Source: Candidatus Multivorans sp. (lineage in GTDB: Bacteria; Acidobacteriota; Thermoanaerobaculia; Multivoradales; Multivoraceae). From it: a stretch of DNA of 64,000 bases. The notes under the pieces were generated by a model, which did no database searches, was not told the origin of the DNA, and saw only the letters and a program-made list of their open reading frames with translations. Position 1 is the first letter of the stretch; every line of letters begins with the position of its first letter. Position numbers and translations under genes: made by a program. The DNA is taken from the NCBI GenBank assembly GCA_965205295.1, contig OZ242167.1:135788-199787 (forward strand), given 5' to 3'. Positions 929-38,830 of this stretch are shown here, piece by piece.

Positions 929-952
929 GGCGTTGCTCCTCTGCCTGGCGGG

Positions 953-3561: not shown

Positions 3562-3721
3562 CGACAAACTCCCTCCTGTGCAACGTCCAAGATGTCGCGG
3601 AACGGTGCTCTCGTGCCGCCGTTGACGCGAACCGCGGATGATACCGTGCAGCGCGTTTTCGGTTTCCAGCGACACCGGGCCCGGCGCCCGAGTTGCCTGC
3701 CACGCCAAGGAGAAGATCAGA

Positions 3722-4837: not shown

Positions 4838-4906
4838 CGGCCTGACTACCTGAAGGAGGTTGAGTCGACGTCCGGCGAGGGCCCTACTCCGAAACCCGCT
4901 GGCTCG

Positions 4907-8649: not shown

Positions 8650-8689
8650 CTTCGTCCGGCAGTGTACCGACGGCCGGCGCGCGTCTACT

Positions 8690-10954: not shown

Positions 10955-11074
10955 GTTCGTCTCCGCCGGTGAATCCTCACGCCCGTTATCGGGCGCGCGG
11001 ATGGAACCAGGATTGTGGGGGGCGATTGTACGGAACTGAGCTCTGAGGGGTCCAGGGCCCGACGCGATTCGGAC

Positions 11075-11113
11075 AAGGAAAAGAGCCCCGAGGGCGTTTG
11101 CTCCTCGGGGCTC
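11075..11113 (-). terminator. rho-independent terminator candidate (11-bp GC stem, 9-nt loop, then TTTTCCTT on the minus strand)
   Basis: gagccccgagg / cctcggggctc inverted repeat at 11083-11113; the minus strand continues TTTTCCTTGTCC. It lies about 385 nt downstream of the rne stop and upstream of coxL. Confidence 0.5.
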
Positions 11114-11497
11114 CGGTGACGCTCTTGGACCGCGGTTTGCGCGGCTCGGTCGAGCGTGTTCTTGGCCGATGGGATGGCGTGGGATCGCTTCCCGAAGGAG
11201 GCGCCCTACGCCAGGCAGGGGTTACCTAGGGAGCCGCCACCTCCATCAAGCCGCATCTGCAGTACTCCACTAGACCACCTCCTTTCCGGGCACATCCACA
11301 AAGTGGTGGGTCCCACCCCACCCGGTCGCGGGATCGCCCCGATTGACCCCGGGACCGCCGCTCGCGCCTCGTTGACGGAGCGGAACGACTGGCACGATGC
11401 TGTTCGATCGGCGGGGCAGTTGTCAAACCCCCGTGTCTCCAGGGGGTTGCGCGCGCCCGGACGGGTCGTCGAGGAGCGGCGCTGTCTGGTGTCGCCG

Positions 11498-16850: not shown

Positions 16851-17336
16851 ATGACGAAAGCCGATGCCTCCACCGTACTTGAGACCTACGCCAACTCGGC
16901 CGACCTGCCGGTAACCGAGGCTGCCTGTCTGGGAACGCTCCTCGGGATCGAGGATGCCGAAGTCCTGAGCAACCTGGAACTCGCGCGCCGGGTTGGCCGC
17001 GGCCTGCCCACGGACGCGGTGTCCGTGCTGACGGAGATTCTGGGCGCCAGGAACATCGTAGGACCGGTGATCCCCGAGGCCACGCTGCGGCGTACCCGCA
17101 ACGCAGGCAAGCCCCTGTCGAGGGAGATGAGCGAGCGGCTCTACGAGCTCAGCCGCGTCGTCAATGCGCTGAGCCGGGTGTACCACGGGGACCGGGAGGG
17201 AATCGAGGCCTACCTGACGTCGCGGCATGCTCTGCTGGATGGCGAGAGGCCGCTCGATGTCGCCTGCTCGAGTTCCGCCGGCGCGCGGGCGGTGCTCGAT
17301 GTGATTCATCAGGCCGAGGCCGGCTTTCCCGTCTGA
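16851..17336 (+). CDS. Xre-like HTH / DUF2384 antitoxin (MbcA/ParS-type) of a RES-Xre type II TA pair
   Basis: 161 aa with the characteristic C-terminal toxin-binding region. Its stop overlaps the start of the RES gene (ATGA). Confidence 0.7.
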   Translation: MTKADASTVLETYANSADLPVTEAACLGTLLGIEDAEVLSNLELARRVGRGLPTDAVSVLTEILGARNIVGPVIPEATLRRTRNAGKPLSREMSERLYELSRVVNALSRVYHGDREGIEAYLTSRHALLDGERPLDVACSSSAGARAVLDVIHQAEAGFPV

Positions 17337-17818
17337 TGGTGCGGCGGCTTGCGTCGCCGATGTCGGCGTATCGCATCGGCGACGCCGACGGGAGGTTCCC
17401 GGTGTGGAGCGCGGAAGGCGCCAGGCGCACTGCCGGTAGATGGCACGAGGCAGGCGCCGAGGTGATCTACGCCTCGCGGAACTACTCGACGGCCATGCTG
17501 GAGATGCTGGTCGGCTGGTCAGGGCGGGTTCCACCGAACCAACACTCCGTGGAGATCGTCCTGCCCGCGGGAACCAGCTACGAGGTCGTGGCGACCGACG
17601 TCCTGCCGGACTGGCATCGGCAGACCCGCGCAGCGTCTCAGCGCTTTGGCCGGGACTGGTACCAGGAGCGCCGAAGCGTGATCCTCGTCGTGCCCTCGGT
17701 CGTGGCGCGCATGGAGAGCAACGTCGTCATCAACACGGGCCATCCCGACTACGAGGGCCTGCCGGTCGAGGTCGGGCTGGAGACGCCCGTATGGTGGGAC
17801 CGGCGTCTGTTCCCGTGA
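17336..17818 (+). CDS. RES-domain toxin (MbcT/ParT-like NAD+-targeting toxin)
   Basis: 160 aa. R-E-S region GRWHEAGAEVIYAS. Translationally coupled to the upstream antitoxin. Confidence 0.75.
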   Translation: MVRRLASPMSAYRIGDADGRFPVWSAEGARRTAGRWHEAGAEVIYASRNYSTAMLEMLVGWSGRVPPNQHSVEIVLPAGTSYEVVATDVLPDWHRQTRAASQRFGRDWYQERRSVILVVPSVVARMESNVVINTGHPDYEGLPVEVGLETPVWWDRRLFP

Positions 17819-19821: not shown

Positions 19822-21858
19822 CTATTCGGAAGGCTGGGCAGAGCCGCCTGACCCGTCAGGTCCGGGCAGCCGGTAGGCGACCAGCTCGAACCGCGCGCCG
19901 CGTCCCCCGAGCGCGAACACCAGGTACTGCCGGCCTCGATGGAGGAAGGTGATGGGGCTGCCGTCGGTGTGCGCGGGCAAGTCGATCTCGCCGACGAGTT
20001 CGCCGGTCGCCTTGTCGAACGCGCGCAGCGCCGGGGTCTCGACGCGCCAGTCGTCACGGCCCGCGCCCGCTGCCGTCGCCTCCTGGTCGATGGCACGGAA
20101 GGCGAGCGACCGGCCGGCGGTCACGAACAGGAGGGTCTTCGTCGCCACGACGTGGCCGCGGGCCCCGGAGCCAAGGCTCGGCAGGTCGAGCCCGGCGAGC
20201 GCCGGATGGCGGCGCGGGCCGTAGCCCAGGGGCGCCGTCCATGCGATCTCGCCGCGGTTCATGTCGTAGGCGGTGACCCTGGAGTAGGGCGGCTTGACCA
20301 GGGGCAGGTCGCGCGGGCCGCGCACGTCGCTGTTGATGCGGCCGACGTAGTCGAAGGCCGAGCGGCTTGCGTCCGGCTTGCCGAGCGTATTGACCACGGG
20401 CCAGGTGAAGGACGGCACGTAGAGCATGCCGGTCTCGGGGTCGAAGGCGCCGCCGGGCCAGCTCGCGCCGCCGCCGTAGCCGGGCATCAGAAACGTGCCG
20501 CGTTCCGTGGGCGGCGTGAACAGCGGGCCGTACTGGTAGCGGGAGAGGATGGCCCGCGCCTCGCTGCGGAGCTTGGGCGTGAAGTCGATCAGATCGTCCG
20601 GACCGATGCCCTGGCGGTCGAAGGCCGGCGGCTTGGTGGGGAAGGGCTGGGTCGCCGACGTGCGCTCGCCCACGATGCCGGTTTGCGGCACTTCACGCTC
20701 CAGGATCGGCCACACGGGCTCGCCGGTACTCGCGTCGAAGACGTAGAGGAAGCCCTGCTTGGAGAGCTGCATCGCGGCGCGGATGGTCGTGCCCTCGACC
20801 TCGATGTCGCCGAGGATGGCGGAGGTCGGCAGGTCGTAGTCCCACAGGCCGTGGTGGACCATCTGGAAGTGCCAGCGCCGCTCCCCGGTCTCGCAGTCAA
20901 CCGCGACCAGCGACTCGGCGTAGAGGTTGTCGCCGAGGCGGTGTCCGCCGTACCAGTCGTTGGTCGGCGTGCCGAACGGCAGATAGGCGAGGCCGAGCTC
21001 CGGGTCGGCGCTCATCAGCGTCCACACGTTCGTGTTGCCGCTGACCTTCCACGAACCCTTCTTCCAGGTATCCCGCCCGGGCTCGCCCTCCCGCGGGATC
21101 GAGTGGAAGGTCCAGAGTTGCTCGCCGGTACGGACATCGAACCCGCGCACGTCGCCCGGCGGCGCTTCGGGCGAGCGGGGACCGTCGGAGACGGACGAGC
21201 CGACGATGACGACATCGCGGCACAGGGTGACCGGCGAACTGACGCTGTAGGCCCGGCGGACCACCTCGCGGCGCAGTCCCAGGGTCAGGTCGACTCCGCC
21301 ACCGTCGCCGAATGAGGAGATCGGTTCGCCGCTGAGCGTGTCCACCGCGCGCAGGAAGGAGTCGCCGCCGGCCCAAAGCAGGCGGCCCCCGTCACCCGGA
21401 AGGTCGGGGTCGTCCCAGTAGGTCGCTCCGCGGTGGACGAAGCCGAGGTTCGCCGGACGGCCCTGGAGGTAGGCCTGCGGATCGTAGGTCCAGAGACTCG
21501 TTCCCTGCTCGATGTCGACCGCCGCGATCTGCCCGTAGCCGGTCGTCACATAGAGCCGGTCGCCGACCTTGATCGGGATCGCCTCATGATTCCGCGGGGT
21601 CGTGCGCCGCCCGGTCGTCGCGCCATCTCCGGTCATCAACTCGTTGTCCGGCGACGACCACCGCCAAGCGACCTCGAGCTCGGCGAAGTTGTCGCGATCG
21701 ATCTGATCGAGCGCGGCGTACCGCTGGCTCGCGTTGTTGCCGGTAACGACCTGCCAGTCTGTGTCCGCAGGCTCCTGGGCAGCACCAGCGACCCCGAGCG
21801 CCACCGTCACCCCGACTGGTAGCCACCTCAGACCCCGACAACGCCTCTGGCCAAGCAT
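19822..21858 (-). CDS. PQQ-dependent dehydrogenase, soluble glucose/aldose-dehydrogenase-like (mGDH-like catalytic propeller without the N-terminal membrane anchor)
   Basis: ATG at 21858 (MLGQRRCRGLRWLPVGVTVALGVAGAAQE, signal peptide). Motif MVHHGLWDYDLP resembles the mGDH active-site region. No vicinal Cys pair. The six-frame ORF reads through to 24402 and gives a spurious 1526-aa product. Confidence 0.75.
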   Translation of the reverse strand: MLGQRRCRGLRWLPVGVTVALGVAGAAQEPADTDWQVVTGNNASQRYAALDQIDRDNFAELEVAWRWSSPDNELMTGDGATTGRRTTPRNHEAIPIKVGDRLYVTTGYGQIAAVDIEQGTSLWTYDPQAYLQGRPANLGFVHRGATYWDDPDLPGDGGRLLWAGGDSFLRAVDTLSGEPISSFGDGGGVDLTLGLRREVVRRAYSVSSPVTLCRDVVIVGSSVSDGPRSPEAPPGDVRGFDVRTGEQLWTFHSIPREGEPGRDTWKKGSWKVSGNTNVWTLMSADPELGLAYLPFGTPTNDWYGGHRLGDNLYAESLVAVDCETGERRWHFQMVHHGLWDYDLPTSAILGDIEVEGTTIRAAMQLSKQGFLYVFDASTGEPVWPILEREVPQTGIVGERTSATQPFPTKPPAFDRQGIGPDDLIDFTPKLRSEARAILSRYQYGPLFTPPTERGTFLMPGYGGGASWPGGAFDPETGMLYVPSFTWPVVNTLGKPDASRSAFDYVGRINSDVRGPRDLPLVKPPYSRVTAYDMNRGEIAWTAPLGYGPRRHPALAGLDLPSLGSGARGHVVATKTLLFVTAGRSLAFRAIDQEATAAGAGRDDWRVETPALRAFDKATGELVGEIDLPAHTDGSPITFLHRGRQYLVFALGGRGARFELVAYRLPGPDGSGGSAQPSE

Positions 21859-24314: not shown

Positions 24315-24515
24315 GGCGGCGATCTCCCCTACGATTGGCGCGGGGAGGATACCCGGCCTTCTGGGAACCCGTGTGGCGCGTTCCGCGCCACACGTGAACC
24401 ACTCCGTGCGCCCGTCATCGAGCGCACGGATGGCACGCGGGCGTCCCGCCCGCATCCGGCGCCGTCGCCTGCCGTACTATTGAGCCACATCCGCTGATCG
24501 AAGGAGGTTGAACCG

Positions 24516-25535
24516 ATGCTCCGAAACGACTCGCGCTTCGCCGGCGTGGCCAAGCTGCTCCTGCCCGCGGTTCTCCTGTTCTCCACGGGGACGCTGGCAG
24601 CCGACGACTGGAAGGCCCCGCGCACCGCCGCCGATCAACCCGACCTGCAGGGCATCTGGGCCAACAACAGCGCGACCCCCCTGGAGCGGCCGGAGGCGTT
24701 CGGCGAGAAGGCGACGCTGACCGACGAGGAGCTGGCCGAACTCAAGCGGCGGCTCAACGAGATCCGGGAGAGTTCCCAGGCCGGCGACCTGCTTGGCGAC
24801 TACCTGATCCAGCGCGTGCTGGAGGACCCGGAGTTCCGCGGCTTCGACCAGGTGACGGGGAACTACAACTCGTTCTGGCTCGTCGACCGGGAACTCGACA
24901 ACCGCACCTCGCTGGTGATCGATCCACCGAACGGCCGCATTCCGGCACTGACGGACCAGGCCATGGAACGTGTGCGGGCTGGGGTGGCCTACGGCGACGA
25001 GGCGCCCGCCGGTCCTGAGGACATGCCCGTCAGCGTGCGCTGCATCAGCTACGGCGTGCCGAACACGCTGGCCGGGTACAACAGCTACTTCCAGATCCTC
25101 CAGACGGCGGACCACGTCGCGATCCTCCAGGAACTGATCCACGACGTGCGCATCATCCCGCTGGGCGAGCCCGAGCCGCTCGCCGACGATCTGCGGCTCT
25201 GGCACGGCAACTCGCGCGGCTGGTTCGAAGGCGACACCCTCGTGGTCGCGACGTCGAACTACTCCGCCGACGGCAGTTCCAGGTCGAGGGCGACGGACGG
25301 TCTGAAGGTGACCGAGCGCTTCACCCGCACCGGCCCGGACGTGATCGAGTGGGAGATCACCTACGACGACGAGGCGACCTGGGTCAGTCCCTGGACGATG
25401 ATGATCCGCCTCGCCCGCACCGAGGACCCGATCTTCGAGTACGCCTGCCACGAGGGCAACTACGGCCTGACGAACATCCTCTCCGGCGCCCGCGCCCAGG
25501 AGCGGGAGGCGGCGGCGAGCGGCGGCGGTCACTAG
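24516..25535 (+). CDS. secreted protein of an uncharacterised family (paralog 1 of 3 in this window; conserved DPPNGRIP, W-G-S-G-W-G-TLVV-T-N, EYACHEGNY motifs)
   Basis: GGAGG RBS and a signal peptide (LLLPAVLLFSTGTLAADD). 339 aa. Clear similarity to 42242..43333 and 62722..63759. Confidence 0.7.
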   Translation: MLRNDSRFAGVAKLLLPAVLLFSTGTLAADDWKAPRTAADQPDLQGIWANNSATPLERPEAFGEKATLTDEELAELKRRLNEIRESSQAGDLLGDYLIQRVLEDPEFRGFDQVTGNYNSFWLVDRELDNRTSLVIDPPNGRIPALTDQAMERVRAGVAYGDEAPAGPEDMPVSVRCISYGVPNTLAGYNSYFQILQTADHVAILQELIHDVRIIPLGEPEPLADDLRLWHGNSRGWFEGDTLVVATSNYSADGSSRSRATDGLKVTERFTRTGPDVIEWEITYDDEATWVSPWTMMIRLARTEDPIFEYACHEGNYGLTNILSGARAQEREAAASGGGH

Positions 25536-25568: not shown

Positions 25569-27133
25569 CTACTCGATTGCCTCGAGCGGCACGGCGCTTC
25601 GCAGTTGGAGCCCTTGCCGGATCACTCGGACTTCCGGCGCGATGGCGGCGCCGGACGGCTGGTCGGTGTGGTACGTCAGCACGTGTTGATGGCGCAGGTC
25701 GTCTTCGATCTGCTTGAACACGCCCTGGATCCGTTGCGTCCATGGCGGAGTGTCATCTGTAACGTCGACGTGGAAGAGGCGGCCGCCAGTTTGGCGGCTG
25801 ATCGTTTCGAGCCGCTTCCGGTGTTGTCGCCGTCGACTCCTGGTCCTCTTGTTCGGTCGGTCGAGTTCGATGAAGTAGATCGGAAGACCAAGCCGCACCG
25901 CAAAGTCGGCGGACTGGCTTGGCGTGGTGCGGCTGTGCTGGTCGAAGCCGTCGGTGACTACGACCAGCGCTCGGCGACCCGGTTCCCTACCGTACTGGAG
26001 CAAGGAGAACAGGATCCCGTCGTTCAGTGCCGTGCCCATTCTGGGGACGAGCAATCTCACCTGGCTCGCAAGCAGGCGCTTGTTTCCGGTCAGCCGTTGG
26101 GCCAGGCGAACTGTGCCGGCGAAGTCGACCACGAAGGCCCGATCGTCTGGTGAAAGTGCAGCGTCAAGAAAGCCGGCGGACACGTCCCTCGCCTGATGCC
26201 AGATGGGCAGCATGCTGTCTGACATATCGATCGCCAGACCGAGAACCAGGGGACGTAGTGAGCCGTATGGAGATTCTCCACCAAGCGCTTCCTGCCGCCC
26301 TCGCGGATCTCGAAATCCTCCGGCTTCAGGCCGCTCACGGGGTCCCCGTCGCGGTCGCTAACCAGCAGTTGGAGCTGGGCCAACTGGATGTCGATCTCGT
26401 CCTGGTACACCGCGCCCTGGAGAAGTTGGGCGTCTTCCAACTCGCGGCCGCCGGCGAGCGTCGCCGTGACCCGGACGAAGTCGTCGGCTGGGTTGTACTC
26501 CATCAGGGACTCGACCGGGATCGTACGGGGAACGCCGGGAGCCGCGTCCTCGCCGAAGTTGTTCATGGTCTCTACCAGGAGTTCGCCGCGATAGAACGCG
26601 CCCCGTTCGAGCTTCGCGGACCGGGGCACCGAGACATCCGCCTCGATCCGTAGCGCGTCGTACCCGTCCGCATCCACGCGGCGCATCGTGGTGATGCGGA
26701 CGCCAAAGGGAACGTCCAGTTGGTTGAGGGTCATCCTGTCGGTTCCGAGGACGTTGCCCAGGGCGTCGCAGGCCCGGACTTCGAGCATCTGTTCGCGAGG
26801 CGGATTCGCCAGTTCGATGGGGGCTTGGTAAGGCGGCTTCTTTACGCGCTTCACTGGGTTGCCGTCGAGGACGAATTCGACCGCCCTGATCAGTGGGTGA
26901 ACAAGCAGGGTCTGGATCTCGACCTTGCCGCTGAACGGTTCGCCGTAGCCGCGGTCCGGCGGCACGATGTGAATCATCAGCCGCCCCGTGTCCGCCGAGG
27001 CAACGGCTGCCTCCCTGGCGGAGTTGTCCTGAGCGCTTGCCGGTGCGTGGACCGCTACGCAGGTCACCAGAGCAAGTGCCGCCGCGGCCATCGTCTTGGT
27101 GGCGCGGGCGTGGTCCGAATCGGCAGCGGTCAT
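25569..27133 (-). pseudogene. Acidobacteria-type secreted VWA (MIDAS) domain protein, copy A of a tandem array; single-base frameshift in a G4/C4 homopolymer
   Basis: The N-terminal frame (26090..27133) and the C-terminal VWA frame (25569..26225) join if one C is added to the run at 26249-26252; this restores ...HTAYVPLVLGLAIDMSDSM, matching copy B. It lacks the N-terminal domain present in copies B-D. Confidence 0.6.
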
Positions 27134-27155
27134 CTGGCTTCTCTCGACATCCGCC

Positions 27156-29222
27156 CTACTCGATCCCCTGGAGCGGCACCGCGCTCCGCAGGTTGAGCCC
27201 CCGCCGGGTCAGTCGGATCTCAGGCTCGACCGCCGTGCCGGGCGGCTGGTCGCTGTAGTAGGTCAGCACGTGCTGGTGCCGCAGGTCTTGCTCGATCTGA
27301 TCGAAGACGTGCTCGATGTGGTCGGTCCACCGCGGCGTGGTGGCGTAGAGCTCGATGCGGAAAAGGCGTCCGCCGGTTTGCTCGCTGATCCGGCTGAGCC
27401 GTTTCCGCGCCCGTTGCCGCTGTGCCGTTCGTGTGACGTTGAGCGCGACCACGCCGGATGAGTCTCCGGTACCCGGACCCGATGCGTCCAGTTCGATGAA
27501 GTAGATCGGCAGGCCCAGCCGCTCCGCGAGGTCGGCGGACTGTTCGGGTTGGGATCGACTGTGCTGGTCGGCGCCGTCGGTGACCACGACCAGGGCGCGG
27601 CGCCCGGGCTCGCGGCGGTACTGGAGTAGAGAGAACAGGAGCCCGTCGTTGAGCGCCGTGCCGCCCATCGGAATCAGATGGTCAAGCCGGCTTTGCAGCA
27701 GCGGTTGGTCTGCCGTCAGTGGCTGGACGAGGCGCACCGTGTCGTCGAAGTCGACCAGGAAGGACCGGTCGCCAGGCTCCAGGGCGGTCTCGAGGAAGCC
27801 CCGGGCAATGTGCTTCAGGCGCCTCCAGGTGGAGAGCATGCTGTCCGACGAGTCGATCGCCAGCCCCAGGACCAGGGGCACGTCGTAGGCGGTGTGAAGG
27901 GCCACCGCCGGGTGCTTCCTGCCGTTCTCCCGGATTTCGAAGTCCTCCGGCGAGAGCCCGCTGACAGGATTCCCGTCGCGGTCCGTGACCAGCACCTGGA
28001 ACTGAACCAGTTGGACGTCGATCTCGCTCTGGTAGTCCGCTCCCTGCAGGAGTGCCGCGTCTTCCCGCTCACGGCCGTCGGCGAGCTTCGCCACAACACG
28101 GATGAAGTCGTCCGGTCGGCCGTCCTCGATCAGTGCCTCGAGGGAAATGGTGCGCGCGACGCCGGGCGCCCCATCTTCGCCGAAGGTGTGCGTTGCCGAC
28201 ACGAGATTCTCGCTGCGGTAGAACTCGACCCGCTCGAGTGTCGCCGCGCGCGGCAGCGACACGGAGGCCGCCACCCGGATCGCGGGGTCCCCGTTTGCCT
28301 GCGCGCTGTGAATCTCGGCGATGTGGACGGCGAAGGGCCGGTCGATCTGGTTGAGGAGGATCTCGTCCCTTCCGATGTACTCGTTCTTTCTGTCGTAGGC
28401 GAGGGCCTCGAGCTTCTGCTCGCGGGGTGGGTCGGCCAAACCGATGCGGGTCGTGAAGGGTCGGTTGCGAACGCGCCTGGTCTGTTTGCCGTCGAGCAGG
28501 AACTCCACTTCGCCAACGCGCGGATCGACGATCAGGGTCTGGATTTCGACTCTGCCGCTGAGCAGTTCGCCGACCCTGCGTTCGGGCGGCACAATGCGGA
28601 TCGTGGTGGGCTGGCCGGCACCGGCGGCCAGGGAATCCGAGGCAGGCGACACTTCCGGGCGGTCGTAGACCGTACTGAACTCCAGCCGAGGTTGGGACCG
28701 GACGTTGAGGTCGGTCATCCGCACAAGCTGGTCGTTCAGCAGGAAGAAGGTGTCGAACCGGCGCCAGTGCGAAGCGACCATCTCGATCGTGAGGCGTTCG
28801 TCGGTTTCGAGAAGGCGCCCGTCGACGCCGCGGCCAAGCGAGTGCTGCCGGCCGTCGAGCGCCAGGACACGGATGCCGCCGCGGTCGTCGAGGAGCACCA
28901 GGGCGTCATCGAGAATCCGGATCATCACCGTGCCGTAGCGCTCCGCGAGAGCCTGGGCCAGCTCGTCCACGGTCGGCGATCTGCGTTTGGGCGCCACTCG
29001 CATGCCCTGGACCTTGAGGACCGGATCGTCGCTGAGTTCGTCGTTCCTGATCCAGGGGCCATGCAGGTTGGAAAAGGGGACGTCCGGATGGACGCCGGTC
29101 CTGCTCGGTGGCGGAACGCCTTGGGCGGATGCCCCGGCAGCCCACACGGAGACCGCGAGCGTGAGCGCTGTCGAGGCTGCCGCGCAGCCGATCGCGGCAC
29201 GACGTAGGGCTCCGGCTCTCAC
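27156..29222 (-). CDS. secreted VWA (MIDAS) domain protein with Acidobacteria-type VWFA-related N-terminal region, copy B
   Basis: 688 aa. Signal peptide, then an internal Ig-like/VWFA-related region (EIDVQLVQFQVLVTDRDGNPVSGLSPEDFEIRENG), then MIDAS DSSDSM...GGTALNDG...VVVTDG. Confidence 0.8.
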   Translation of the reverse strand: MRAGALRRAAIGCAAASTALTLAVSVWAAGASAQGVPPPSRTGVHPDVPFSNLHGPWIRNDELSDDPVLKVQGMRVAPKRRSPTVDELAQALAERYGTVMIRILDDALVLLDDRGGIRVLALDGRQHSLGRGVDGRLLETDERLTIEMVASHWRRFDTFFLLNDQLVRMTDLNVRSQPRLEFSTVYDRPEVSPASDSLAAGAGQPTTIRIVPPERRVGELLSGRVEIQTLIVDPRVGEVEFLLDGKQTRRVRNRPFTTRIGLADPPREQKLEALAYDRKNEYIGRDEILLNQIDRPFAVHIAEIHSAQANGDPAIRVAASVSLPRAATLERVEFYRSENLVSATHTFGEDGAPGVARTISLEALIEDGRPDDFIRVVAKLADGREREDAALLQGADYQSEIDVQLVQFQVLVTDRDGNPVSGLSPEDFEIRENGRKHPAVALHTAYDVPLVLGLAIDSSDSMLSTWRRLKHIARGFLETALEPGDRSFLVDFDDTVRLVQPLTADQPLLQSRLDHLIPMGGTALNDGLLFSLLQYRREPGRRALVVVTDGADQHSRSQPEQSADLAERLGLPIYFIELDASGPGTGDSSGVVALNVTRTAQRQRARKRLSRISEQTGGRLFRIELYATTPRWTDHIEHVFDQIEQDLRHQHVLTYYSDQPPGTAVEPEIRLTRRGLNLRSAVPLQGIE

Positions 29223-29242
29223 CCGCGTCTCTTCCCGGCGGA

Positions 29243-31528
29243 CTACTCGACCGCGTCGAGCGGCAGGGCGCTTCTCACCTTGTGCCCCTTCCGGGTCACC
29301 CGGACTTCCGGTTCGAGTGCGGCGCCGAAGGGGCGCTCGCTGTAGTAGGTCAGCACGTACTGGCGCCGGAGCTCGTCCTCGATGTGGTCGAACACGTTCG
29401 CCATCTGGTCGATGGACTCGATCTGGAACAGGCGCCCGCCGGTGGGGCCGGTGATCAGACGCATGCTGTTGCGCAGGTTCGCGTCCTCCATCGAGGTCGG
29501 GCCGAACCCGACCGAGCGCATGGCGACGACGTAGACGGGGACGCCGAGGCGCTTGCCGAAGTCGATCGCCCGGGTCGGGTCGGAGCGGCTGTTCGAGTCG
29601 AAGCCGTCTGTGACGACGACCAGGGCCCGGCGGCCCGGCGCCTCGCCGTACTGGAGCAGGGAGAACAGGATCGCGTCGTAGAGGGCGGTGCTGCCCTGCG
29701 GAAAGAGGCGTCCGAGGCCGCGCGCCAGCAGCGGCTTGCTGCCGGTGAGTGGCTGCACGAGGCGCAGGGTGGAGTCGAAGTCGACCAGGAACGCCTGGTC
29801 GCGAAAGGTCAGGGCGCCGTTGAGGAACGCCTCGGCGATCGCGTTCGTCTGTTGCCAGATCGGCTCCATGCTGCCCGACGAGTCGATTGCGAGGCCCAGG
29901 GAGAGGGGTACGTCGTTCGAGACGTAGAGCTTCTCGACCTGACGGAGTTCCCCGTCCTCGCGCACCTCGAAGTCTGCCGGTTCGAGGCCGCCGACCGGGC
30001 TGCCCGAGCGGTCCACCACGAGGACCTGGAGCTGCACGAGCTGGACGTCGATCTCGCTGCTGAACTCCGCGCCCTGGAGCAGTTCGACATCCTCGAGTTC
30101 GCGGCCGTCGCCGAGGCGCGCCACAACACGGATGAAGTCCTGGGCCGAGACGCCGGACGTGGGCACGTCGGCGATGACGTCTCGCACGCCGCTCGGCCCT
30201 GCCTCTCCCTCGAAGTGGTCGAAGGCGGCAACGAGCTGCTCAGTGCGGTAGAACTCGACCCGCTCCAGGGTCTCGGTGCGCGGGACCGAGATACCGGCCT
30301 CGACGCGTACCGCCTGTTCGCCTGCGCCGCGGGTCGGGCCGATGCCTGCGATCCGTACCGCGAACGGCGGATCGAGGCGGTTCAGGACGATCTTGTCGCT
30401 GCCCGCGTAGGCGCCCCGGGCTCCAAGGGCCCTGACCTCGATGGTGTGCTCGCGCGGCGGGTCTGCGAGTTCGATCCGGGCTTCGAAGGGTGGCCGGGTG
30501 GCCCGGGCTGTTTCCTCGCCGTCGAGCAGGAACTCGACTACGGCGATCTGCGGGTCGATGGTCAGGGTCTGGATTTGGACGCGCCCGCTGAGCAGTTCCC
30601 GGTGGCCCTTCTCGGGCGGCAGGATGCGGATCGTCGCCGGCCGGGCGCTGCGGGCAGCGTCGGTGCGCTCGGCCCGCCCGTCCGAAACTCCTCCGACCGG
30701 CGGCAGGTAGTCCGCCTTGTTGAAGCCGCCATCGTCGTCCGGCCTTGGGGCGGCGTCGGCCGCGCGCGACGTGGTCGTGGGCGCCGGAGACGGGGGTGCG
30801 TCGCCTGAGCGCTCGTAGACCGTACGGAACGAAAGATCGGCGAAGCGGCCGCCCTGCAGGTCGGTCACGAGCACGAGCTGATCGCCCTCGAGGTAGAAGG
30901 TCTCGATCCGTTGACGGCCCTGGGAGGACGACTCCACTTCGAGCGAGGCGCCGACGAAACGGGCGCGGCTGTGACCGCCGAAGCCATCGGCGATGTCGCG
31001 TCCGTCGAGGAAGAGGACGCGGTCTTCGCGCTTCGCGTTGCGGATGAGGACCTGAGGTTCGTCGATTCGGATCATCAGCACGTCCAGGCGCTCGGCGAGT
31101 TCCCTCGCCATCTCCCGCATCCCGGACGGGCCGTCCTGGCTGCCGCCCTGGCCGCCGCCGCTTCCGCCGCGTCCGCGGCCGAAACCGCTCTGGCCGCCGC
31201 GGCCGAAGCCGCCGGTGGGGCCACCGCCGGGAGTTGCGCCCTGGGATCGTCCGGGCCCGCCGCCGAAGGTCTGGCCGTAGGACTCCTCGAGCTTCTCGAC
31301 CGGGTTCTCGCTCAGCCGCTCGTCGCGAATCCAGATGCCCGGGATGGCGGCGACCGGATCACCCGCGGCCCCGGCTGAGGGTTCTTCCTGGGCGGCCGGG
31401 TCCTGGGCGCCGGCGGGGTTCCCATTCGGCAGCAAGAGGGCGACGCCGAGGATGCCTGCAGCCAGCACTGCCGGTGGGATGCGGTGCGAGCGCCGCCGTC
31501 GGCGCCGGTTGTCGGTGTTCCTGGTCAT
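29243..31528 (-). CDS. secreted VWA (MIDAS) domain protein, copy C (contains a Gly/Arg-rich low-complexity insert)
   Basis: ATG at 31528 (MTRNTDNRRRRRRSHRIPPAVLAAGILGVALLLPNGNPAGAQ). MIDAS DSSGSM. An in-frame upstream stretch to 31822 encodes 2 TM-like helices with strong codon bias, so an alternative start at 31822 (GTG) cannot be excluded. Confidence 0.7.
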   Translation of the reverse strand: MTRNTDNRRRRRRSHRIPPAVLAAGILGVALLLPNGNPAGAQDPAAQEEPSAGAAGDPVAAIPGIWIRDERLSENPVEKLEESYGQTFGGGPGRSQGATPGGGPTGGFGRGGQSGFGRGRGGSGGGQGGSQDGPSGMREMARELAERLDVLMIRIDEPQVLIRNAKREDRVLFLDGRDIADGFGGHSRARFVGASLEVESSSQGRQRIETFYLEGDQLVLVTDLQGGRFADLSFRTVYERSGDAPPSPAPTTTSRAADAAPRPDDDGGFNKADYLPPVGGVSDGRAERTDAARSARPATIRILPPEKGHRELLSGRVQIQTLTIDPQIAVVEFLLDGEETARATRPPFEARIELADPPREHTIEVRALGARGAYAGSDKIVLNRLDPPFAVRIAGIGPTRGAGEQAVRVEAGISVPRTETLERVEFYRTEQLVAAFDHFEGEAGPSGVRDVIADVPTSGVSAQDFIRVVARLGDGRELEDVELLQGAEFSSEIDVQLVQLQVLVVDRSGSPVGGLEPADFEVREDGELRQVEKLYVSNDVPLSLGLAIDSSGSMEPIWQQTNAIAEAFLNGALTFRDQAFLVDFDSTLRLVQPLTGSKPLLARGLGRLFPQGSTALYDAILFSLLQYGEAPGRRALVVVTDGFDSNSRSDPTRAIDFGKRLGVPVYVVAMRSVGFGPTSMEDANLRNSMRLITGPTGGRLFQIESIDQMANVFDHIEDELRRQYVLTYYSERPFGAALEPEVRVTRKGHKVRSALPLDAVE

Positions 31529-31884
31529 GGGGAGACGAATGCCGAGACGAATGCGTGCAGGATACAGGCCAACGGCGTTCCCGACGCGCAGACTCCTAAC
31601 CTGCCAGCAGCAGTTCGCGCACGCCCACATCATGCGGTCGCGCAGAAACAGGAACCGCGCGCCGTTCGAAGCCGCCTGGACGGCGCCGTGCAGGATCATC
31701 GCGCCGCTTACGGGGAGGAGGCTCGTGAGCACGGCCATCAGCGCCAGGCCCCCGGCCATGCCGAGGACCCCGGAGACGATCGCCGTCGCGAGCACCGTCA
31801 ACAGGATGACGGTCGCGATCACGTGGAAGAGCGTTCCGGTGCTACCAATATCTGCGGCGGGAGGCAGGCAGGCGTTTGGCGGCG

Positions 31885-34077
31885 CTACTGAAGCGCTTCG
31901 AGCGGCAGCACGCTCTTCACGGTGAGACCCTTGCGCGTCGTCCGGACCTCCGGCTCGACGCCCGCTCCCGGTGGACGGTCGCTGTAGTAGGTCAGCACGT
32001 GCTGGTGCCGGAGGTCCTTGTTGATCCGGTCGAAGACCCCTTGCATGTCTCTGGCCAGGACGGCCCGGGACTGGCCAGGGTGGATACGGAACAGGCGGCC
32101 GCCGGTTTGACGGCTGAGTCTCTTGATCAGGGGACCCCGGGGATCATTCCAACCGAGAGCGATGGAGTAGATGGGGACCCCCATTCGTTCGGCGTACTCG
32201 GTGACCTGCGCGCGCTTGGAGCGGCTGTGGAGATCGTCGCCGTCGGTCACGACGATCAGGGCGCGGCGGCCCGGTTCGTTCCGGAACTGGAGGAGGGAGA
32301 ACAGGACCCCGTCGTTCAGCGCGGTGCCGCCCTGGGCGAGCAGCCGGTGGAGTCTGGCCTTGAGCAGGGGCCGGCTTCCAGTCAGCGGCTGGAGCGGCCG
32401 GACCGTGTCATCGAAGTCGACGAGGAAAGCTCGATCGTCCGCGGCCAGGGCGCCTTCGAAGAAGGCCCGAACGACCTCGTGTAGTTGGCGCCAGACGAAG
32501 TACATGCTCTCCGACGAGTCGATGGCGATGCCCAGAACCAGGGGGACGTCCTCCGAGACGTGCAGGTCCTTCGCCGGGCGCCAGGCGCCGTTCTCGCGAA
32601 TCTCGAAGTCCTCGGCCTTCAGGTCGCCTACCGGGTCGCCGTCGCGGTCGACGACGAGGATCTGGAGCTGCACGAGTTGCACATCGATTTCGCTGCGGTG
32701 TTCGGCGCCCTGGAGGAGTTCGGCGTCTTCCATCTCCCGGCCGTCGGTGAGCTGCGCCGTGACGCGGACGAAGTCGCCGGGCGAGACGCCCTCGATCAGC
32801 GTGTCGACGGGGATGGTGCGTGCCTCACCGCGATTCGCGGCTGGGTCGAGGTCGTCGAACGTGGCAACCGGATGATCGCCGCGGTAGAACGCGACGCGTT
32901 GGAGCGCCGCGGCGCGCGGCACGGAGACGCTGGCTGCGACGCGGAGCGCCGAAGAGCCTGCCCGGCCTACCGATCGAATCTCTGCAATGCGGACTCGGAA
33001 AGCCGAGTCGAGACGGTTGAGAACGATCCGGTCGGAACCGGCGAGCTTTCCCGAGTCGCTGTAGGCCCGGACTTCCAGCGTCTGTGGACGGGGAGGGTCG
33101 TCGAGCCGGACGCGGGCCACATACGGCGGTTTCCTGGCTTCCTTCGCCCGCACGCCGTCGAGGAAGAACTCGACCGACTGGATCAACGGATCGATGACCA
33201 GGGTCTGGACCTCGACCGGACCGGAGAGTAGTCCCCGGTACTGGCGTCGTGGCGGCACGATGCGGATCGCGGCCGGCCTCACGAAGCGGCCCTGCTCGAC
33301 CCTGGCAGGCCGCCCCGGGGGCGGCTTGCCGTCGGCGTGGTCGTACACGGTCTGGAAGAGGAACTCGGGGGTCGAGAAGTTCTGGGTCTCGGTCAGGTGG
33401 ACCAGCCGCTCGCCCCGCCGGTAGATCGTCTCGATCCAGAGCCAAGCCTGACCGGTTCCCTGCGTGACGATCTCGAGCGAATCCTCGGCGAGGAAGACGG
33501 TGGTCAGGTTGCCCTCGCTGTCGTACCGGGCGTAGCCGTCGGTCCGTACATTGAGGTTCTCGCGCTTGGCGTTTCGAACCAGAACGTCCTGCCCGGCGAA
33601 GTCGATCACGAGGCGGCGGCGGCGGTTGGCAAGGTCTTCGGCGAACTCCCGCAGCCAGCCCGAGACGAAGCCTTCAACGAAGTGGCTGGCGAGGCGCTCG
33701 ACCGGGTCGTCGCTGAGTTGCGCGTTCCGGACCCAGGCGCCTTCCAGGGCAATGGAAACGTCGGCGGCGCCGGACTCGGGGGCGCCGCGGGCAGGCGCCA
33801 CCTGGGCGCGAGCGGGCGGCGCGGTCGCAGCCCCGAAGGCGATGACGGCGAGGACGGCCCCCAGCGATGTCGCCCGGCGGAGGCCGAGCGGAGTTGGGAC
33901 ATGGATCAGCACGGCTTTGCCAGAGGTTAACCGGGCGGTTCCCGGCACTGGCGTGGAGAATGCAAGGTCGGGGCCGGACGGCGCGGCCGCCGGTCGCGCA
34001 TGCGATCTCCGAATTCGCCGCCCCGAGGGTGGCGGTGGCCGCCGGCTGTCGCCCCTTGGTGACGGCGGTGTCCCCAT
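31885..34077 (-). CDS. secreted VWA (MIDAS) domain protein, copy D
   Basis: The first ATG is 34077, only 36 nt from the divergent dppB start; an alternative GTG lies just before the signal peptide (LIHVPTPLGLRRATSLGAVLAVIAFGAATAPPARAQ). MIDAS DSSESM. The six-frame ORF extends spuriously to 34809. Confidence 0.7.
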   Translation of the reverse strand: MGTPPSPRGDSRRPPPPSGRRIRRSHARPAAAPSGPDLAFSTPVPGTARLTSGKAVLIHVPTPLGLRRATSLGAVLAVIAFGAATAPPARAQVAPARGAPESGAADVSIALEGAWVRNAQLSDDPVERLASHFVEGFVSGWLREFAEDLANRRRRLVIDFAGQDVLVRNAKRENLNVRTDGYARYDSEGNLTTVFLAEDSLEIVTQGTGQAWLWIETIYRRGERLVHLTETQNFSTPEFLFQTVYDHADGKPPPGRPARVEQGRFVRPAAIRIVPPRRQYRGLLSGPVEVQTLVIDPLIQSVEFFLDGVRAKEARKPPYVARVRLDDPPRPQTLEVRAYSDSGKLAGSDRIVLNRLDSAFRVRIAEIRSVGRAGSSALRVAASVSVPRAAALQRVAFYRGDHPVATFDDLDPAANRGEARTIPVDTLIEGVSPGDFVRVTAQLTDGREMEDAELLQGAEHRSEIDVQLVQLQILVVDRDGDPVGDLKAEDFEIRENGAWRPAKDLHVSEDVPLVLGIAIDSSESMYFVWRQLHEVVRAFFEGALAADDRAFLVDFDDTVRPLQPLTGSRPLLKARLHRLLAQGGTALNDGVLFSLLQFRNEPGRRALIVVTDGDDLHSRSKRAQVTEYAERMGVPIYSIALGWNDPRGPLIKRLSRQTGGRLFRIHPGQSRAVLARDMQGVFDRINKDLRHQHVLTYYSDRPPGAGVEPEVRTTRKGLTVKSVLPLEALQ

Positions 34078-34113
34078 CGGGTTCCGCTCGCCTGTATTCT
34101 CTGACGCCTTCCC

Positions 34114-35064
34114 ATGAAGACATACATCCTGCGGCGGCTCCTGGCGATGGTGCCGACCCTCTTCTTCGCCAGCCTGATCGTGTTCGTGTCGATGCGGATC
34201 ATTCCCGGTGACGTGATCGACCTGATGCTGGCACAGAACGATGTCTCGACCAGCCTCGATCGGGAGGCCCTCGAGGCGGCGATGGGGCTCGATCAGCCGA
34301 TGGCGACGCAGTACCTGCGCTGGGCCGGCGATGCCCTGCGCGGCGACCTCGGCCAGTCGCTCTGGCGCAGCACGCCGGTGGCGGAGCAGATCATGGACCG
34401 GCTGCCGGTGACCTTCGAGCTTGGTCTGCTGGCGCTCGTGGTGGCGCTGTCGGTCGCGGTGCCGATCGGCATCCTCTCGGCCACTCGCCAGGATTCCGCC
34501 CTGGACTACACGGCGCGGTCGTTCTCGCTCCTGATGCTCGCGGTGCCCGGTTTCTGGCTCGGCACCCTGGTCATGGTCTTCCCGTCGGTCTGGTGGCGCT
34601 GGGCGCCTGCGCTCGAGTACACGCCGTTCTTGGTCGATCCGCTGGCGAACCTGAGCCACCTGATCGTGCCGGCGATCCTGCTCGGGCTGTCGATGTCCGC
34701 GATCACCATGCGGATGACTCGCACGATGATGCTCGAGGTGATGCGTCAGGACTACGTCCGCACGGCGCGTGCCAAGGGTCTGAGCGAGCGTGCCGTGGTC
34801 GTCCAGCACGCGCTGAAGAACGGGCTGATCCCGGTCGTCACGCTGATCGGCCTGCAGGCGCCGCTACTGATCGGCGGCACGGTGGTGATGGAGCAGATCT
34901 TCGTCATTCCAGGCATGGGGCAGTTGCTCCTGGACGGCGTCTACGAGCGGGACTATCCGGTGATCTCCGGCGTCTTCCTGGTCGTCGGAGTCGCGATCCT
35001 GCTGATCAATCTGCTGGTCGACCTGAGCTACGGCTGGCTCGATCCGAAGGTGCGGTACGGATGA
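34114..35064 (+). CDS. ABC transporter permease, DppB/OppB type (peptide/nickel family)
   Basis: MKTYILRRLLAMVPTLF N-terminus, 6 TM segments and the EAA-like loop. Confidence 0.85.
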   Translation: MKTYILRRLLAMVPTLFFASLIVFVSMRIIPGDVIDLMLAQNDVSTSLDREALEAAMGLDQPMATQYLRWAGDALRGDLGQSLWRSTPVAEQIMDRLPVTFELGLLALVVALSVAVPIGILSATRQDSALDYTARSFSLLMLAVPGFWLGTLVMVFPSVWWRWAPALEYTPFLVDPLANLSHLIVPAILLGLSMSAITMRMTRTMMLEVMRQDYVRTARAKGLSERAVVVQHALKNGLIPVVTLIGLQAPLLIGGTVVMEQIFVIPGMGQLLLDGVYERDYPVISGVFLVVGVAILLINLLVDLSYGWLDPKVRYG

Positions 35065-35071
35065 GCGCCGG

Positions 35072-35968
35072 ATGACCACTGTTGGCGCGATCCCCGCGGA
35101 CGCCCTGCCGGGGCGTGACCAGCCTCGCTGGTGGCGCTTCACCGTCCGCCTGTTTCGCACCAAGCCGCTGGGCGCCGCCGGCGCCGTGCTGTTCCTGATC
35201 TTCCTGCTGAGCGGCGTCTTCGCGGGCGTGCTCGCCCCGTACGGCATCAACGAGACCGACCTGACGCATCGCCTCGAGCCGCCGTCCCGGCAGTTCCTGC
35301 TCGGCACCGACCACCTGGGTCGCGACCTGTTCTCGCGGGTCCTGATGGGGGCGCGGCTGTCCATGATCGTCGGCTTCTGCGCCGCCGGCTTGGCGACCGT
35401 AGTGTCGATTGTGATCGGCTTGCTCTCGGGCTATCTCGGCGGCTGGTTCGACCTGCTCACGCAGCGCCTGGTCGACGCCTGGATGACCTTCCCCGACCTG
35501 GTGCTGCTGATCGTCATCGTGTCCGTGGTCGGTCCCGGCATCACCCAGATCGTCATTATCCTGGGGCTGCTCTACGGCATCGCCGGGTCGCGGATCGTGC
35601 GGGGTGCTACGACCTCGGTGCGCGAGCACGTCTATACCCAGGCCGCGCAGTCGATCGGCGCCGGCACCTTCCACATCCTCCGTCGTCACATCCTGCCCAA
35701 CGTGATGCCGGTCGTCATCGTCCTGTTCACGACCCGTGTCGGCGCGGTCATCCTGTCGGAGGCGGCGCTTTCGTTCCTGGGCCTGGGGGTGCCGCCGCCG
35801 GCGCCCACCTGGGGCGGCATGCTGAGCGGCGACGGTCGCACCTACCTCTACCTGGGGCCCTGGCTGGCGTTGGCGCCGGGCGTCTGTCTGACGGTGGTCG
35901 TCTATTCGGCGAACATCTTCGGCGACGCGTTGCGCGACCTTCTCGATCCGAGAATGAGGGGCACGTGA
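35072..35968 (+). CDS. ABC transporter permease, DppC/OppC type
   Basis: Typical OppC N-terminal helix and BPD_transp_1 fold. It begins 8 nt after dppB. Confidence 0.85.
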   Translation: MTTVGAIPADALPGRDQPRWWRFTVRLFRTKPLGAAGAVLFLIFLLSGVFAGVLAPYGINETDLTHRLEPPSRQFLLGTDHLGRDLFSRVLMGARLSMIVGFCAAGLATVVSIVIGLLSGYLGGWFDLLTQRLVDAWMTFPDLVLLIVIVSVVGPGITQIVIILGLLYGIAGSRIVRGATTSVREHVYTQAAQSIGAGTFHILRRHILPNVMPVVIVLFTTRVGAVILSEAALSFLGLGVPPPAPTWGGMLSGDGRTYLYLGPWLALAPGVCLTVVVYSANIFGDALRDLLDPRMRGT

Positions 35969-36039
35969 GCGCGTTCGAGGACCATGCGGGCGCATCGTTC
36001 CTGGAGTGCCAGGCCCAGAGTGCCAAGTAGAGTACGGCC

Positions 36040-38786: not shown

Positions 38787-38830
38787 GGGCGACTCCGTCA
38801 CCGCACGTTGGCGGAGGCGCCTGACCCGTC

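Follow-up and report, generated by a model that had tools for sequence, protein, structure and literature searches.

What purpose is served by three similar, apparently secreted proteins encoded within a single 64,000-nt stretch of Candidatus Multivorans sp. DNA (contig OZ242167.1; 68% GC; the whole stretch is referred to as the window) is the question raised by this locus. Judged from sequence, the three open reading frames (ORFs) are real paralogs, predicted to be Sec-exported, of a very large unannotated bacterial family. In other genomes this family is genetically coupled to the protein families DUF6152 and DUF6644 and to periplasmic dehydrogenases, and it is probably a subunit of an undescribed, conserved periplasmic oxidation module. 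The window members, numbered copy 1 to copy 3 by position, all belong to the part of the family referred to as the A clade, and have the following features (GC3, GC fraction at third codon positions; pLDDT, predicted local distance difference test score).

24516-25535, + strand: copy 1, A-clade member, 339 amino acids (aa); ORF with GC3 0.92; AlphaFold2 pLDDT 80
24516-24599, + strand: predicted Sec signal peptide of copy 1, 28 aa, cleavage between TLA and AD, read from the sequence
25434-25463, + strand: signature FEYACHEGNY of copy 1, residues 307-316, invariant alignment columns
42242-43333, + strand: copy 2, A-clade member, 363 aa; ORF with at least 8000 homologs
42242-42310, + strand: predicted signal peptide of copy 2, 23 aa, cleavage between LSA and QD, read from the sequence
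43124-43153, + strand: signature FEYACHEGNY of copy 2, residues 295-304, from the alignments
62722-63759, + strand: copy 3, A-clade member, 345 aa; ORF; AlphaFold2 pLDDT 74.5
62722-62796, + strand: predicted signal peptide of copy 3, 25 aa, cleavage between CLA and AE, read from the sequence
63661-63690, + strand: signature YEFACHEGNY of copy 3, residues 314-323, invariant alignment columns

Pairwise BLASTP with composition adjustment aligned the proteins over nearly their full length, at 41% identity for copies 1 and 2 (E 8e-71), 34% for copies 1 and 3 (E 2e-44) and 36% for copies 2 and 3 (E 1e-60). A three-way MAFFT alignment yielded about 90 invariant columns and reproduced every shared block listed in an earlier note on this DNA, whose claim that these ORFs are true paralogs was thereby borne out. 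The three frames displayed the GC3 of 0.83-0.92 and low GC2 that are typical of coding sequence; long spurious ORFs occur on every strand of the window at its GC content, and the ORFs overlapping the family genes in antisense, such as 24477-25532 (-), failed the GC3 test. A compositional or GC artefact was therefore rejected on the basis of the composition-adjusted E-values obtained for all three pairs, the GC3 values and the thousands of homologs. Scores against the family hidden Markov model (HMM) amounted to 517, 485 and 319 bits for the three window proteins. As for their starts, copy 2 has a GGAGG Shine-Dalgarno sequence 8 nt 5′ of its start codon, and the ORF finder placed the start of copy 3 at 62542, whereas the Met at 62722 yields a normal signal peptide and agrees with the ortholog at locus L153.

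Sequence inspection, made with no predictor, supported the earlier proposal of a signal peptide on all three copies. The putative signal peptides, MLRNDSRFAGVAKLLLPAVLLFSTGTLA before the AD of copy 1, MGKHTASIAAFIVAGLASAALSA before the QD of copy 2 and MRFRGFSLSFSLCAAASLLLVPCLA before the AE of copy 3, each show a basic n-region, a hydrophobic core and an A-x-A-type site, and the conserved family blocks start only a few residues past the cleavage sites (from residue 35 in copy 1). The mature window proteins contain exactly two Cys each, in R-C-(I/V) and A-C-H-E.

The A clade can be defined by a signal peptide, the blocks P-D-L-x-G-x-W, T-P-L-E-R, R-T-S-L-x-x-D-P-P-x-G-R, E-R-C, G-D-S-x-G-x-W-E-G-x-T-L-V and E-R-F, and E-Y/F-A-C-H-E-G-N near the C-terminus; every defining block is present in all three window proteins. 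An exhaustive profile search of 1.84 billion cluster representatives revealed 22,142 family clusters (counted at 50% identity) at E<=1e-3 and 2,038 at E<=1e-30. Word-indexed searches returned at least 8000 matches, all of them unnamed or 'hypothetical' and lacking a precomputed Pfam domain. Species-representative genomes contained at least 595 family loci, the best 80 of which were mostly from Acidobacteriota (Vicinamibacterales, Bryobacterales), next to Pseudohongiella and other Gammaproteobacteria, Gemmatimonadales and Phenylobacterium. The closest relatives of the window are metagenome-assembled genomes (MAGs) labelled Acidobacteriota/Holophagales that share its local synteny; in related MAGs, copy 1 homologs are 86-96% identical and lie in the same synteny.

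Residue conservation was examined across 155 diverse family members in copy 1 numbering. Both Cys are never replaced (C176 in 155/155, C311 in 150/150), in keeping with the invariance previously noted from the window alone. Moreover, H312 (146/150), E313 (148/150), N315 (148/150), E206 (154/155), R212, E267, R175, G231 and S132 are conserved at 95% or more, while H209 reaches only 83%. The earlier inability to place the family in a characterised group persisted in library searches. Specifically, the three proteins matched 0 families of Pfam-A 2025 at E<=1, and 114 aligned members gave only three isolated single-member chance matches to Pfam at E<=0.1 (E 0.04-0.07). NCBIfam 20.0 returned none for copies 2 and 3 and two chance-level matches far below cutoff for copy 1 (E 0.065 and 0.2), and profile searches of the PDB with profiles A1 and A2 gave best E-values of 0.057 and 0.91, both to unrelated proteins.

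The genetic context of the family was surveyed by clustering the ORFs of 80 genome loci together with those of the window. Family genes are often multi-copy (131 genes in 77 loci, in tandem arrays of up to six). For each of the 13 full-length pyrroloquinoline quinone (PQQ) dehydrogenase genes in the genome loci, the distance to a family gene was below 4 kb, and for seven it was below 1 kb; the 4-9 kb range contained none, although it offered 400 kb. Likewise, 10 of the 12 DUF6152 genes had a family gene no more than 1 kb away, in most cases on the same strand and with the two genes touching or overlapping. The analysis of conserved neighbours proposed in the earlier note thus links the family to PQQ dehydrogenases, DUF6152 and DUF6644 in other genomes.

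Motif inspection further revealed a sister clade, referred to as the B clade, whose members are shorter than those of the A clade (about 270-290 aa). The B clade retains both Cys as well as E206, R212, E267, R268 and D285, but replaces the A-clade motif E-Y-A-C-H-E-G-N with (E/D/Q)-F/Y-K-C-V-E-F-x-E-E, so that the signature of the superfamily, including A, B and divergent members, becomes E-(Y/F)-x-C-x-E-(x)-N. His312 is confined to the A clade, being absent from the B clade and from sphingomonad relatives. The genes recur in the order B, A, DUF6152. A DUF6152-seeded metagenome scan added 80 further loci, and among the 48 DUF6152 loci with at least 1 kb of upstream DNA, 43 carried a same-strand family gene directly upstream; two family genes were present upstream at 15 of 32.

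The full co-oriented operon, with abutting or overlapping genes in the order PQQ dehydrogenase, B, A, DUF6152, DUF6644, DUF6644, was observed at L098 and L117. Loci L153 and L157 carry PQQ dehydrogenase, B, A and DUF6152, and variants occur at L064, L082 and L083, the latter two (3711-11444) having the order A, B, DUF6152, PQQ dehydrogenase, sulfatase, PQQ dehydrogenase(::A). As the A proteins of the operon loci are mostly only 33-60% identical (75% between L098 and L117) and locus GC ranges from 48 to 69%, several lineages carry the operon. The dehydrogenases at its head differ as well. Those of L098 and L117 are 37-40% identical to residues 150/168-794 of E. coli Gcd and lack its N-terminal membrane domain, those of L153 and L157 are alcohol-dehydrogenase-like, and in one marine lineage (L099, L101, L102 and L103, about 670-6400) a Gluconate_2-dh3 subunit with a twin-arginine translocation signal, a GMC oxidoreductase and an Acyl_transf_3 protein are encoded directly upstream of B and DUF6152. 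This variety of clades and cofactor types suggests a role common to dehydrogenases rather than processing of the product of one substrate. The PQQ dehydrogenase operons lack the usual cytochrome c partner gene and include two small membrane proteins; the GMC operon of the marine lineage similarly has no cytochrome c subunit gene within it.

Simplified arrangements were found in cultured Alphaproteobacteria. In Novosphingobium humi (NYQ05_RS20625/20620), a divergent family member (EYNCLENY) occurs with a GH39-like gene and DUF6152, and two DUF6644 genes are transcribed divergently. In Croceibacterium atlanticum (WYH_RS16155-16165), a divergent member (EFQCSEN) is accompanied by two DUF6152 genes and a TonB-dependent receptor. 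On plasmid 1 of Paracoccus denitrificans PD1222, a DUF6152-DUF6644 pair (L085 8986-9846, PDEN_RS23965/23970) is present without a family member.

The link to PQQ dehydrogenases extends to gene fusions. In P0287 and P0409 (984-1021 aa), a complete PQQ dehydrogenase is joined to an A-clade domain with no signal peptide in between, and the junction coincides with the mature N-terminus of the A domain, …LVAFALPAA(Q/E)(S/N)D being followed directly by IPRMPGGEPDLSG. The P0409 cluster counts 17 members from several Acidobacteriota MAGs (e.g. MDE2924591.1, MCY3964689.1 and MDE2851035.1), on contigs of up to 4 Mb. Stand-alone versions of 390 aa with their own signal peptide share the 90%-identity cluster of the fusion, indicating that the fusion is genuine and recent. 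The fused A domain is closest to window copy 3 (46% identity) and the fused dehydrogenase to the window PQQ dehydrogenase at 19822-21858 (45% identity); all such fusions derive from one narrow clade. P0410, a candidate three-domain fusion, was rejected as a gene-call artefact, since its family part has its own signal peptide following a broken sulfatase. Other combinations are a CXXCH-containing alpha-toroid protein fused to the family (P0141, a single sequence), a family member fused to a separate Lipocalin_5 domain (P0212) and a tandem duplication of the family (P0005). In related MAGs, the fusion-type dehydrogenase clade also has other fusion partners, namely a full sulfatase in P0411 (1345 aa) and an unassigned C-terminal domain of about 330 aa in P0423.

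The structure prediction and Foldseek comparison suggested in the earlier note pointed to a fatty-acid-binding-protein (FABP)/calycin-like barrel for both modelled proteins, copy 1 (AlphaFold2; pLDDT 80, predicted template modelling score 0.79) and copy 3 (pLDDT 74.5). Both models start with a short strand and helices, continue into a barrel made up of a first strand, a helix and eight consecutive antiparallel strands (residues 190-301 in copy 1), and end with the signature-motif loop and a long helix. Against the PDB, the top Foldseek matches of both models were solely FABP, CRABP, CRBP and SAHS barrels, with template modelling (TM) scores normalised to the target of 0.45-0.55, best E-values of 6e-4 and 1.4e-3 (range to 1e-2) and, for the copy 3 model, root-mean-square deviations mostly of 3.3-5 Å over about 114 columns. 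These matches are weak and the FABP-like similarity spans only about one third of the protein; the C-terminal two thirds are accordingly best described as resembling a calycin/FABP-like barrel, not as a demonstrated member of that fold. In both models, pLDDT drops below 50 in or beside the best-conserved pair of loops, Y-N-x-x-W and C-H-E-G-N-Y (for the latter at residues 314-316 in copy 1 and 321-323 in copy 3), which would fit loops that become ordered around a ligand, cofactor or partner.

Because the number of strands in the eight-strand run is even, the segments carrying C176 and C311 would emerge at the same end of the modelled barrel. Together with export to an oxidising compartment, this makes a C176-C311 disulfide the simplest reading, and we infer that the two invariant Cys form such a bond, consistent with export, conservation and barrel topology. 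The disulfide would tie the loop leading into the eight-strand run to the one that leaves its last strand, thereby placing the Y-N-x-x-W and C-H-E-G-N-Y loops at one barrel mouth, where invariant strand Arg, Glu, Gln and Tyr residues would join them. In the models, this mouth has the look of a polar site for a ligand or cofactor, shared by all paralogs.

The partner proteins have features of their own. In an alignment of DUF6152 proteins (A4; L015-L086), the predicted mature N-terminus starts with an invariant His1-His2, and N-P-H29, a W and E49 are invariant as well; judging by its residues, the N-terminal His-His looks like a metal site. DUF6644 is a small polytopic membrane protein with a conserved His in its first helix, and one member gave a weak DUF2214 match (E 0.0015). 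Homology of DUF6644 to the membrane domain of E. coli Gcd was rejected after a negative HMM search, which leaves a functional analogy. Recurring redox neighbours include class II cytochrome c lipoproteins, which carry CxxCH at the C-terminus, a cytochrome c of the PRC type and another protein family containing CxxCH, and HupE_UreJ_2 proteins are encoded at 13 of the 41 long loci. Moreover, a conserved and usually divergently transcribed trio lies beside family-DUF6152 operons at the metagenome loci L089-L103, L098, L117, L125 and L144. It consists of a class II (c′-like) cytochrome c lipoprotein, a HupE_UreJ_2 membrane protein and a transmembrane-anchored 188-aa protein with the motif HAPFTGIHGWFWEN and no Pfam match.

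In the window itself, the surroundings of the three genes are less regular. The relevant features are listed below.

19822-21858, - strand: PQQ dehydrogenase, soluble homolog of membrane glucose/quinate/shikimate dehydrogenase (Pfam PQQ E 1.6e-178)
57905-59674, + strand: PQQ dehydrogenase, methanol/ethanol-like (alcohol-dehydrogenase-like; Pfam PQQ E 9e-60)
1765-3561, - strand: third PQQ dehydrogenase, methanol/ethanol family (NCBIfam TIGR03075, 526 bits, cutoff 480)
59675-62721, no strand: about 3 kb between PQQ dehydrogenase and copy 3, a blastn synteny break relative to L153
60826-61272, within 59675-62721: PadR regulator (Pfam/NCBIfam matches)
ending at 62651, within 59675-62721: perm_prefix membrane protein (Pfam/NCBIfam matches)

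The dehydrogenase at 19822-21858, which matches NCBIfam TIGR03074 below cutoff (374 bits), is located about 2.7 kb from copy 1 and is likely a partner-type enzyme. That at 57905-59674 is located about 3.0 kb from copy 3, and the third is not near any family copy. The relative position of copy 1 and its dehydrogenase is kept at L001 and L169. At L153, positions 1-2512 match window 57118-59668 (85% nucleotide identity; 89% at the protein level for the dehydrogenase) and positions 2553-3598 match window 62698-63755 (81% nucleotide identity; 81% for the copy 3 protein), so that just 38 bp separate the two orthologs; genes for a B-clade protein, an A-clade protein and DUF6152 come next. This adjacency and the synteny at L001 and L169 indicate that the association in the window is the remnant of a real linkage. 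The earlier note had correctly placed two of the three copies near a PQQ dehydrogenase gene but had called the association loose, a description that does not hold at the family level in view of the distance enrichment, the recurrent fusion, the orthologous adjacency and the conserved operon. The three window genes are 'orphan' A-clade copies, two of which keep an ancestral linkage to PQQ dehydrogenase genes.

Of the remaining neighbours, a FadB-like gene and a series of five VWA genes flank copy 1 on its two sides, an MFS transporter is encoded upstream and a DUF1932 protein downstream of copy 2 (a synteny kept in one relative), and the PadR regulator followed by the 'permease-prefix' membrane protein precedes copy 3. 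Directly downstream of copy 3 no B-clade gene was found; an unrelated membrane protein ORF starts there and is cut by the window end. The neighbour arrangements of all three copies are kept only in close relatives, and since they are also heterogeneous, they are uninformative; the FadB-like, VWA, MFS, DUF1932 and PadR genes were rejected as functional clues. The VWA array itself (25569-34809, - strand) comprises five consecutive paralogous VWA_2 genes encoding 218 to 974 aa directly downstream of copy 1, and is also present in the relative represented by L169. Elsewhere in the window, an Xre-like antitoxin followed by a RES-domain toxin (16851-17818, + strand) constitutes a type II toxin-antitoxin pair. 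A candidate Fic/DOC-domain ORF (36040-37038, + strand) overlaps the start of an SBP_bac_5 gene inside an Opp-type ABC transporter operon (35072-40914), and either of the overlapping frames may be the real one.

These data led us to rank first, with a probability of about 0.38, the reading that the A and B barrels are periplasmic accessory subunits coupling soluble dehydrogenases to a membrane acceptor. The module would then comprise a soluble periplasmic dehydrogenase, usually PQQ-dependent, one B-clade and one A-clade protein, DUF6152 and two DUF6644 membrane proteins. The barrels would act as accessory carriers or adaptors for soluble dehydrogenases whose characterised relatives have a membrane anchor or a cytochrome c partner that they themselves lack. 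Coupling might proceed either through a redox-active small molecule held by the barrels, quinone-like or another cofactor, or through docking of the enzyme to DUF6152 and DUF6644. Rather doubtful is the more specific version in which the A/B barrels, DUF6152 and the DUF6644 pair form a new route from periplasmic dehydrogenases to the membrane quinone pool that is independent of c-type cytochromes. Such a route, with PQQ-dependent enzymes as main users and some flavin-dependent ones too, would replace the membrane anchor of membrane-bound glucose dehydrogenase (mGDH) and the cytochrome c partners of alcohol dehydrogenases, and might be built on a protein-held quinone or a His-brace-type metal centre.

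Several observations weigh against the coupling reading. About 85% of the family genes in the genome loci have neither a PQQ dehydrogenase nor DUF6152 within 1.5 kb, and the many of them in tandem arrays suggest that the role of the family may exceed dehydrogenase coupling. In the window, the immediate neighbours of all three genes are unrelated, and tblastn with 12 DUF6152 proteins found no DUF6152 in the 64 kb (best E 0.04). The family has no recognised redox-cofactor motif (no CxxCH, and a single invariant His), the B clade and the sphingomonad relatives do without the A-clade His, and Foldseek support for the barrel is weak, with a best E of 6e-4. The sulfatase and other-domain fusions in the same dehydrogenase clade imply that C-terminal fusion alone is no proof of an electron acceptor. 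Finally, the recurring HupE_UreJ_2 neighbours and the His-rich DUF6152 are reminiscent of metal handling.

This last point would suit a cofactor or metal chaperone, a role that we consider unlikely: the barrel would bind PQQ or a metal (Ca/lanthanide, copper or another) in the periplasm and deliver it to DUF6152 or to dehydrogenases, with DUF6152/DUF6644 as a CopC/CopD-type metal-handling pair and HupE_UreJ_2 as permease. Such a role would account for the abundance of Arg, Glu, Asp, Asn, Tyr and His among the invariant residues of the family, the invariant His1-His2, N-P-H29 and E49 of DUF6152, the HupE_UreJ_2 genes and the TonB-dependent receptor adjoining the module in Croceibacterium. It would also suit the window PQQ dehydrogenases, all three of which match the NCBIfam 'acido-empty-quinoprotein' model (TIGR04528) below cutoff, a model that was presumably built for Acidobacteria quinoprotein homologs thought to lack PQQ synthesis. 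Scavenging of PQQ and lanthanides is moreover widespread (PMC12124388; bioRxiv 10.64898/2026.07.10.737718), and the small periplasmic protein of the latter preprint is different from this family. Yet the module also occurs, albeit in one lineage only, beside an FAD-type GMC dehydrogenase needing neither PQQ nor lanthanide, inner-membrane proteins are not obviously needed for periplasmic cofactor supply, and at least six paralogs per locus would be unusual for a chaperone. The CopC/CopD pairing, for its part, would be an analogy, and the DUF6644 HMM had no match among the tested comparisons.

We regard as still less likely that the barrel is a catalytic scaffold built from Cys, His, Glu, Asn, Arg and Tyr and acting on the substrates or the products of periplasmic catabolism (a lactone, keto-sugar, aldehyde or glycan step), with paralogs specialised by substrate. 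Catalytic calycins do exist, such as lipocalin-type prostaglandin D synthase with its active Cys. The invariant polar constellation including C-H-E-x-N, the paralog expansions and tandem arrays typical of catabolic enzymes, and neighbours such as sulfatase, GH39-like, G8-domain, NHL/SGL lactonase-like, VOC, cyclase and amidohydrolase genes would suit an enzyme, as would the sulfatase or other enzyme-like domain fused at the same position in the same dehydrogenase clade. However, about 30 residues are invariant across paralogs that are only 34-44% identical, which argues for one common ligand rather than varied substrates. His312 is dispensable in the B and sphingomonad clades, a disulfide in an exported protein is the simplest account of both Cys, and the obligate A-B-DUF6152 gene triad resembles a complex more than a pathway step. 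An enzyme specific to the product of one substrate was further down-weighted because the linked dehydrogenases come from clades with different substrate classes and differ in cofactor type. Least likely of all, in our estimation, is a generic periplasmic calycin that binds a hydrophobic or anionic small molecule, or a stress protein, its proximity to PQQ dehydrogenases reflecting that both secreted families are abundant and have expanded together in the same oligotrophic bacteria. Most copies are indeed orphans with heterogeneous neighbours, both families are highly expanded (three of each in the window alone), and the fold family is classically made of binding proteins. Against this stand the distances of PQQ dehydrogenases, which peak at family genes and never exceed 4 kb, the fusions in several MAGs, the tightly packed operons in divergent lineages and the presence of a family gene at 90% of DUF6152 loci.

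If the barrels do couple dehydrogenases to a membrane acceptor, the consequences would reach beyond this window. Soil and marine Acidobacteriota, Gemmatimonadota and Gammaproteobacteria are rich in periplasmic PQQ dehydrogenases whose acceptors and maturation factors are mostly unknown, and a family tied genetically to these enzymes, DUF6152 and DUF6644 is a testable candidate for the missing acceptor or maturation link. If true, the new route would explain how the many 'orphan' quinoproteins are connected to the respiratory chain in Acidobacteriota, Gemmatimonadota and marine Gammaproteobacteria. Practical outcomes of the analysis are a clear definition of the family, split into A and B clades, and a delimited operon suitable for cloning. 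The simplified versions in cultured N. humi, C. atlanticum and P. denitrificans make genetics possible, and the P. denitrificans DUF6152-DUF6644 pair provides a handle on the partner proteins in a tractable model organism. Even without a coupling role, a new conserved periplasmic calycin-like family with an invariant polar site would merit a structure. The main points of the earlier note stand, its structural or metal-binding core being a possibility, although it had missed the FABP-like fold, the sister B clade and the DUF6152/DUF6644 partnership. None of the family, the B clade and the module with DUF6152/DUF6644 is described in the family libraries and literature searched, and all three appear to be undescribed, although the barrel architecture is a familiar one.

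How the family relates to known systems can be considered at the level of both fold and genetic organisation. FABP, CRABP and CRBP proteins and the wider calycins were the best structural matches of both models (TM about 0.5 over about 114-170 columns), and the likeness lies in the antiparallel beta-barrel and, judging from the secondary structure of the models, in a helical element that separates the first strand from the others. FABPs hold their anionic ligand with Arg and Tyr residues inside the barrel; the present family also has invariant Arg, Glu and Tyr on strands. In contrast, there is no sequence similarity to FABPs (7-18% identity), Pfam lipocalin/FABP signatures (Lipocalin, Lipocalin_2, Lipocalin_5 and similar) matched neither the three proteins nor the 114 members, and the family proteins are 2.5 times the size of FABPs, carrying about 130 additional residues at the N-terminus and a long helix at the C-terminus. 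They are also predicted to be exported, are probably stapled by Cys and have mostly polar or charged invariant residues. With a best E of 6e-4 between predicted and known structures, common ancestry with FABPs is not established.

YceI/X158 proteins such as Cellvibrio Cbp2D/E embody a similar concept, in which a redox-active quinone is carried by a lipocalin-like barrel outside the cytoplasm, encoded together with cytochromes or membrane redox proteins; such domains have been purified with ubiquinone-8 and implicated in extracytoplasmic electron transfer (PMC10154616). YceI was absent from the Pfam matches and from the top 50 Foldseek matches of either model, and quinone binding by the present family we infer purely by analogy. 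The genetic position of the family, immediately downstream of the dehydrogenase or fused to its C-terminus, matches that of the acceptors of PQQ dehydrogenases, cytochrome cL/c550 (MxaG, XoxG, ExaB), which were compared along with the C-terminal cytochrome c domain of quinohemoprotein alcohol dehydrogenase and the N-terminal ubiquinone-reducing membrane domain of mGDH. Unlike these acceptors, the family has no CxxCH or haem signature and a different fold. A haem c acceptor was rejected because the mature window proteins lack CxxCH, and a cupredoxin acceptor (azurin, amicyanin) because the sole invariant His adjoins a Cys, there is no conserved Met and no Pfam copper-binding model matched.

MxaJ and XoxJ are similarly periplasmic, non-catalytic accessory proteins encoded with a PQQ dehydrogenase. 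They have the solute-binding-protein fold (Pfam SBP_bac_3), which matched neither the three proteins nor the 114 members; the predicted fold of copies 1 and 3 is a beta-barrel. For the partner proteins, the analogy mentioned above is with CopC/CopD, in that a small exported beta-rich protein with an N-terminal His is paired with a small polytopic membrane protein, and the DUF6152/DUF6644 pair gave no Pfam CopC or CopD match. Every testable defining feature of the compared families, be it Pfam domain, CxxCH, copper ligands or solute-binding-protein fold, is thus absent. By resemblance of the predicted fold, the nearest known proteins would be calycins of the FABP type, and at the level of the system the family would be most comparable to the acceptors of PQQ dehydrogenases, to MxaJ/XoxJ and to carriers of the YceI type.

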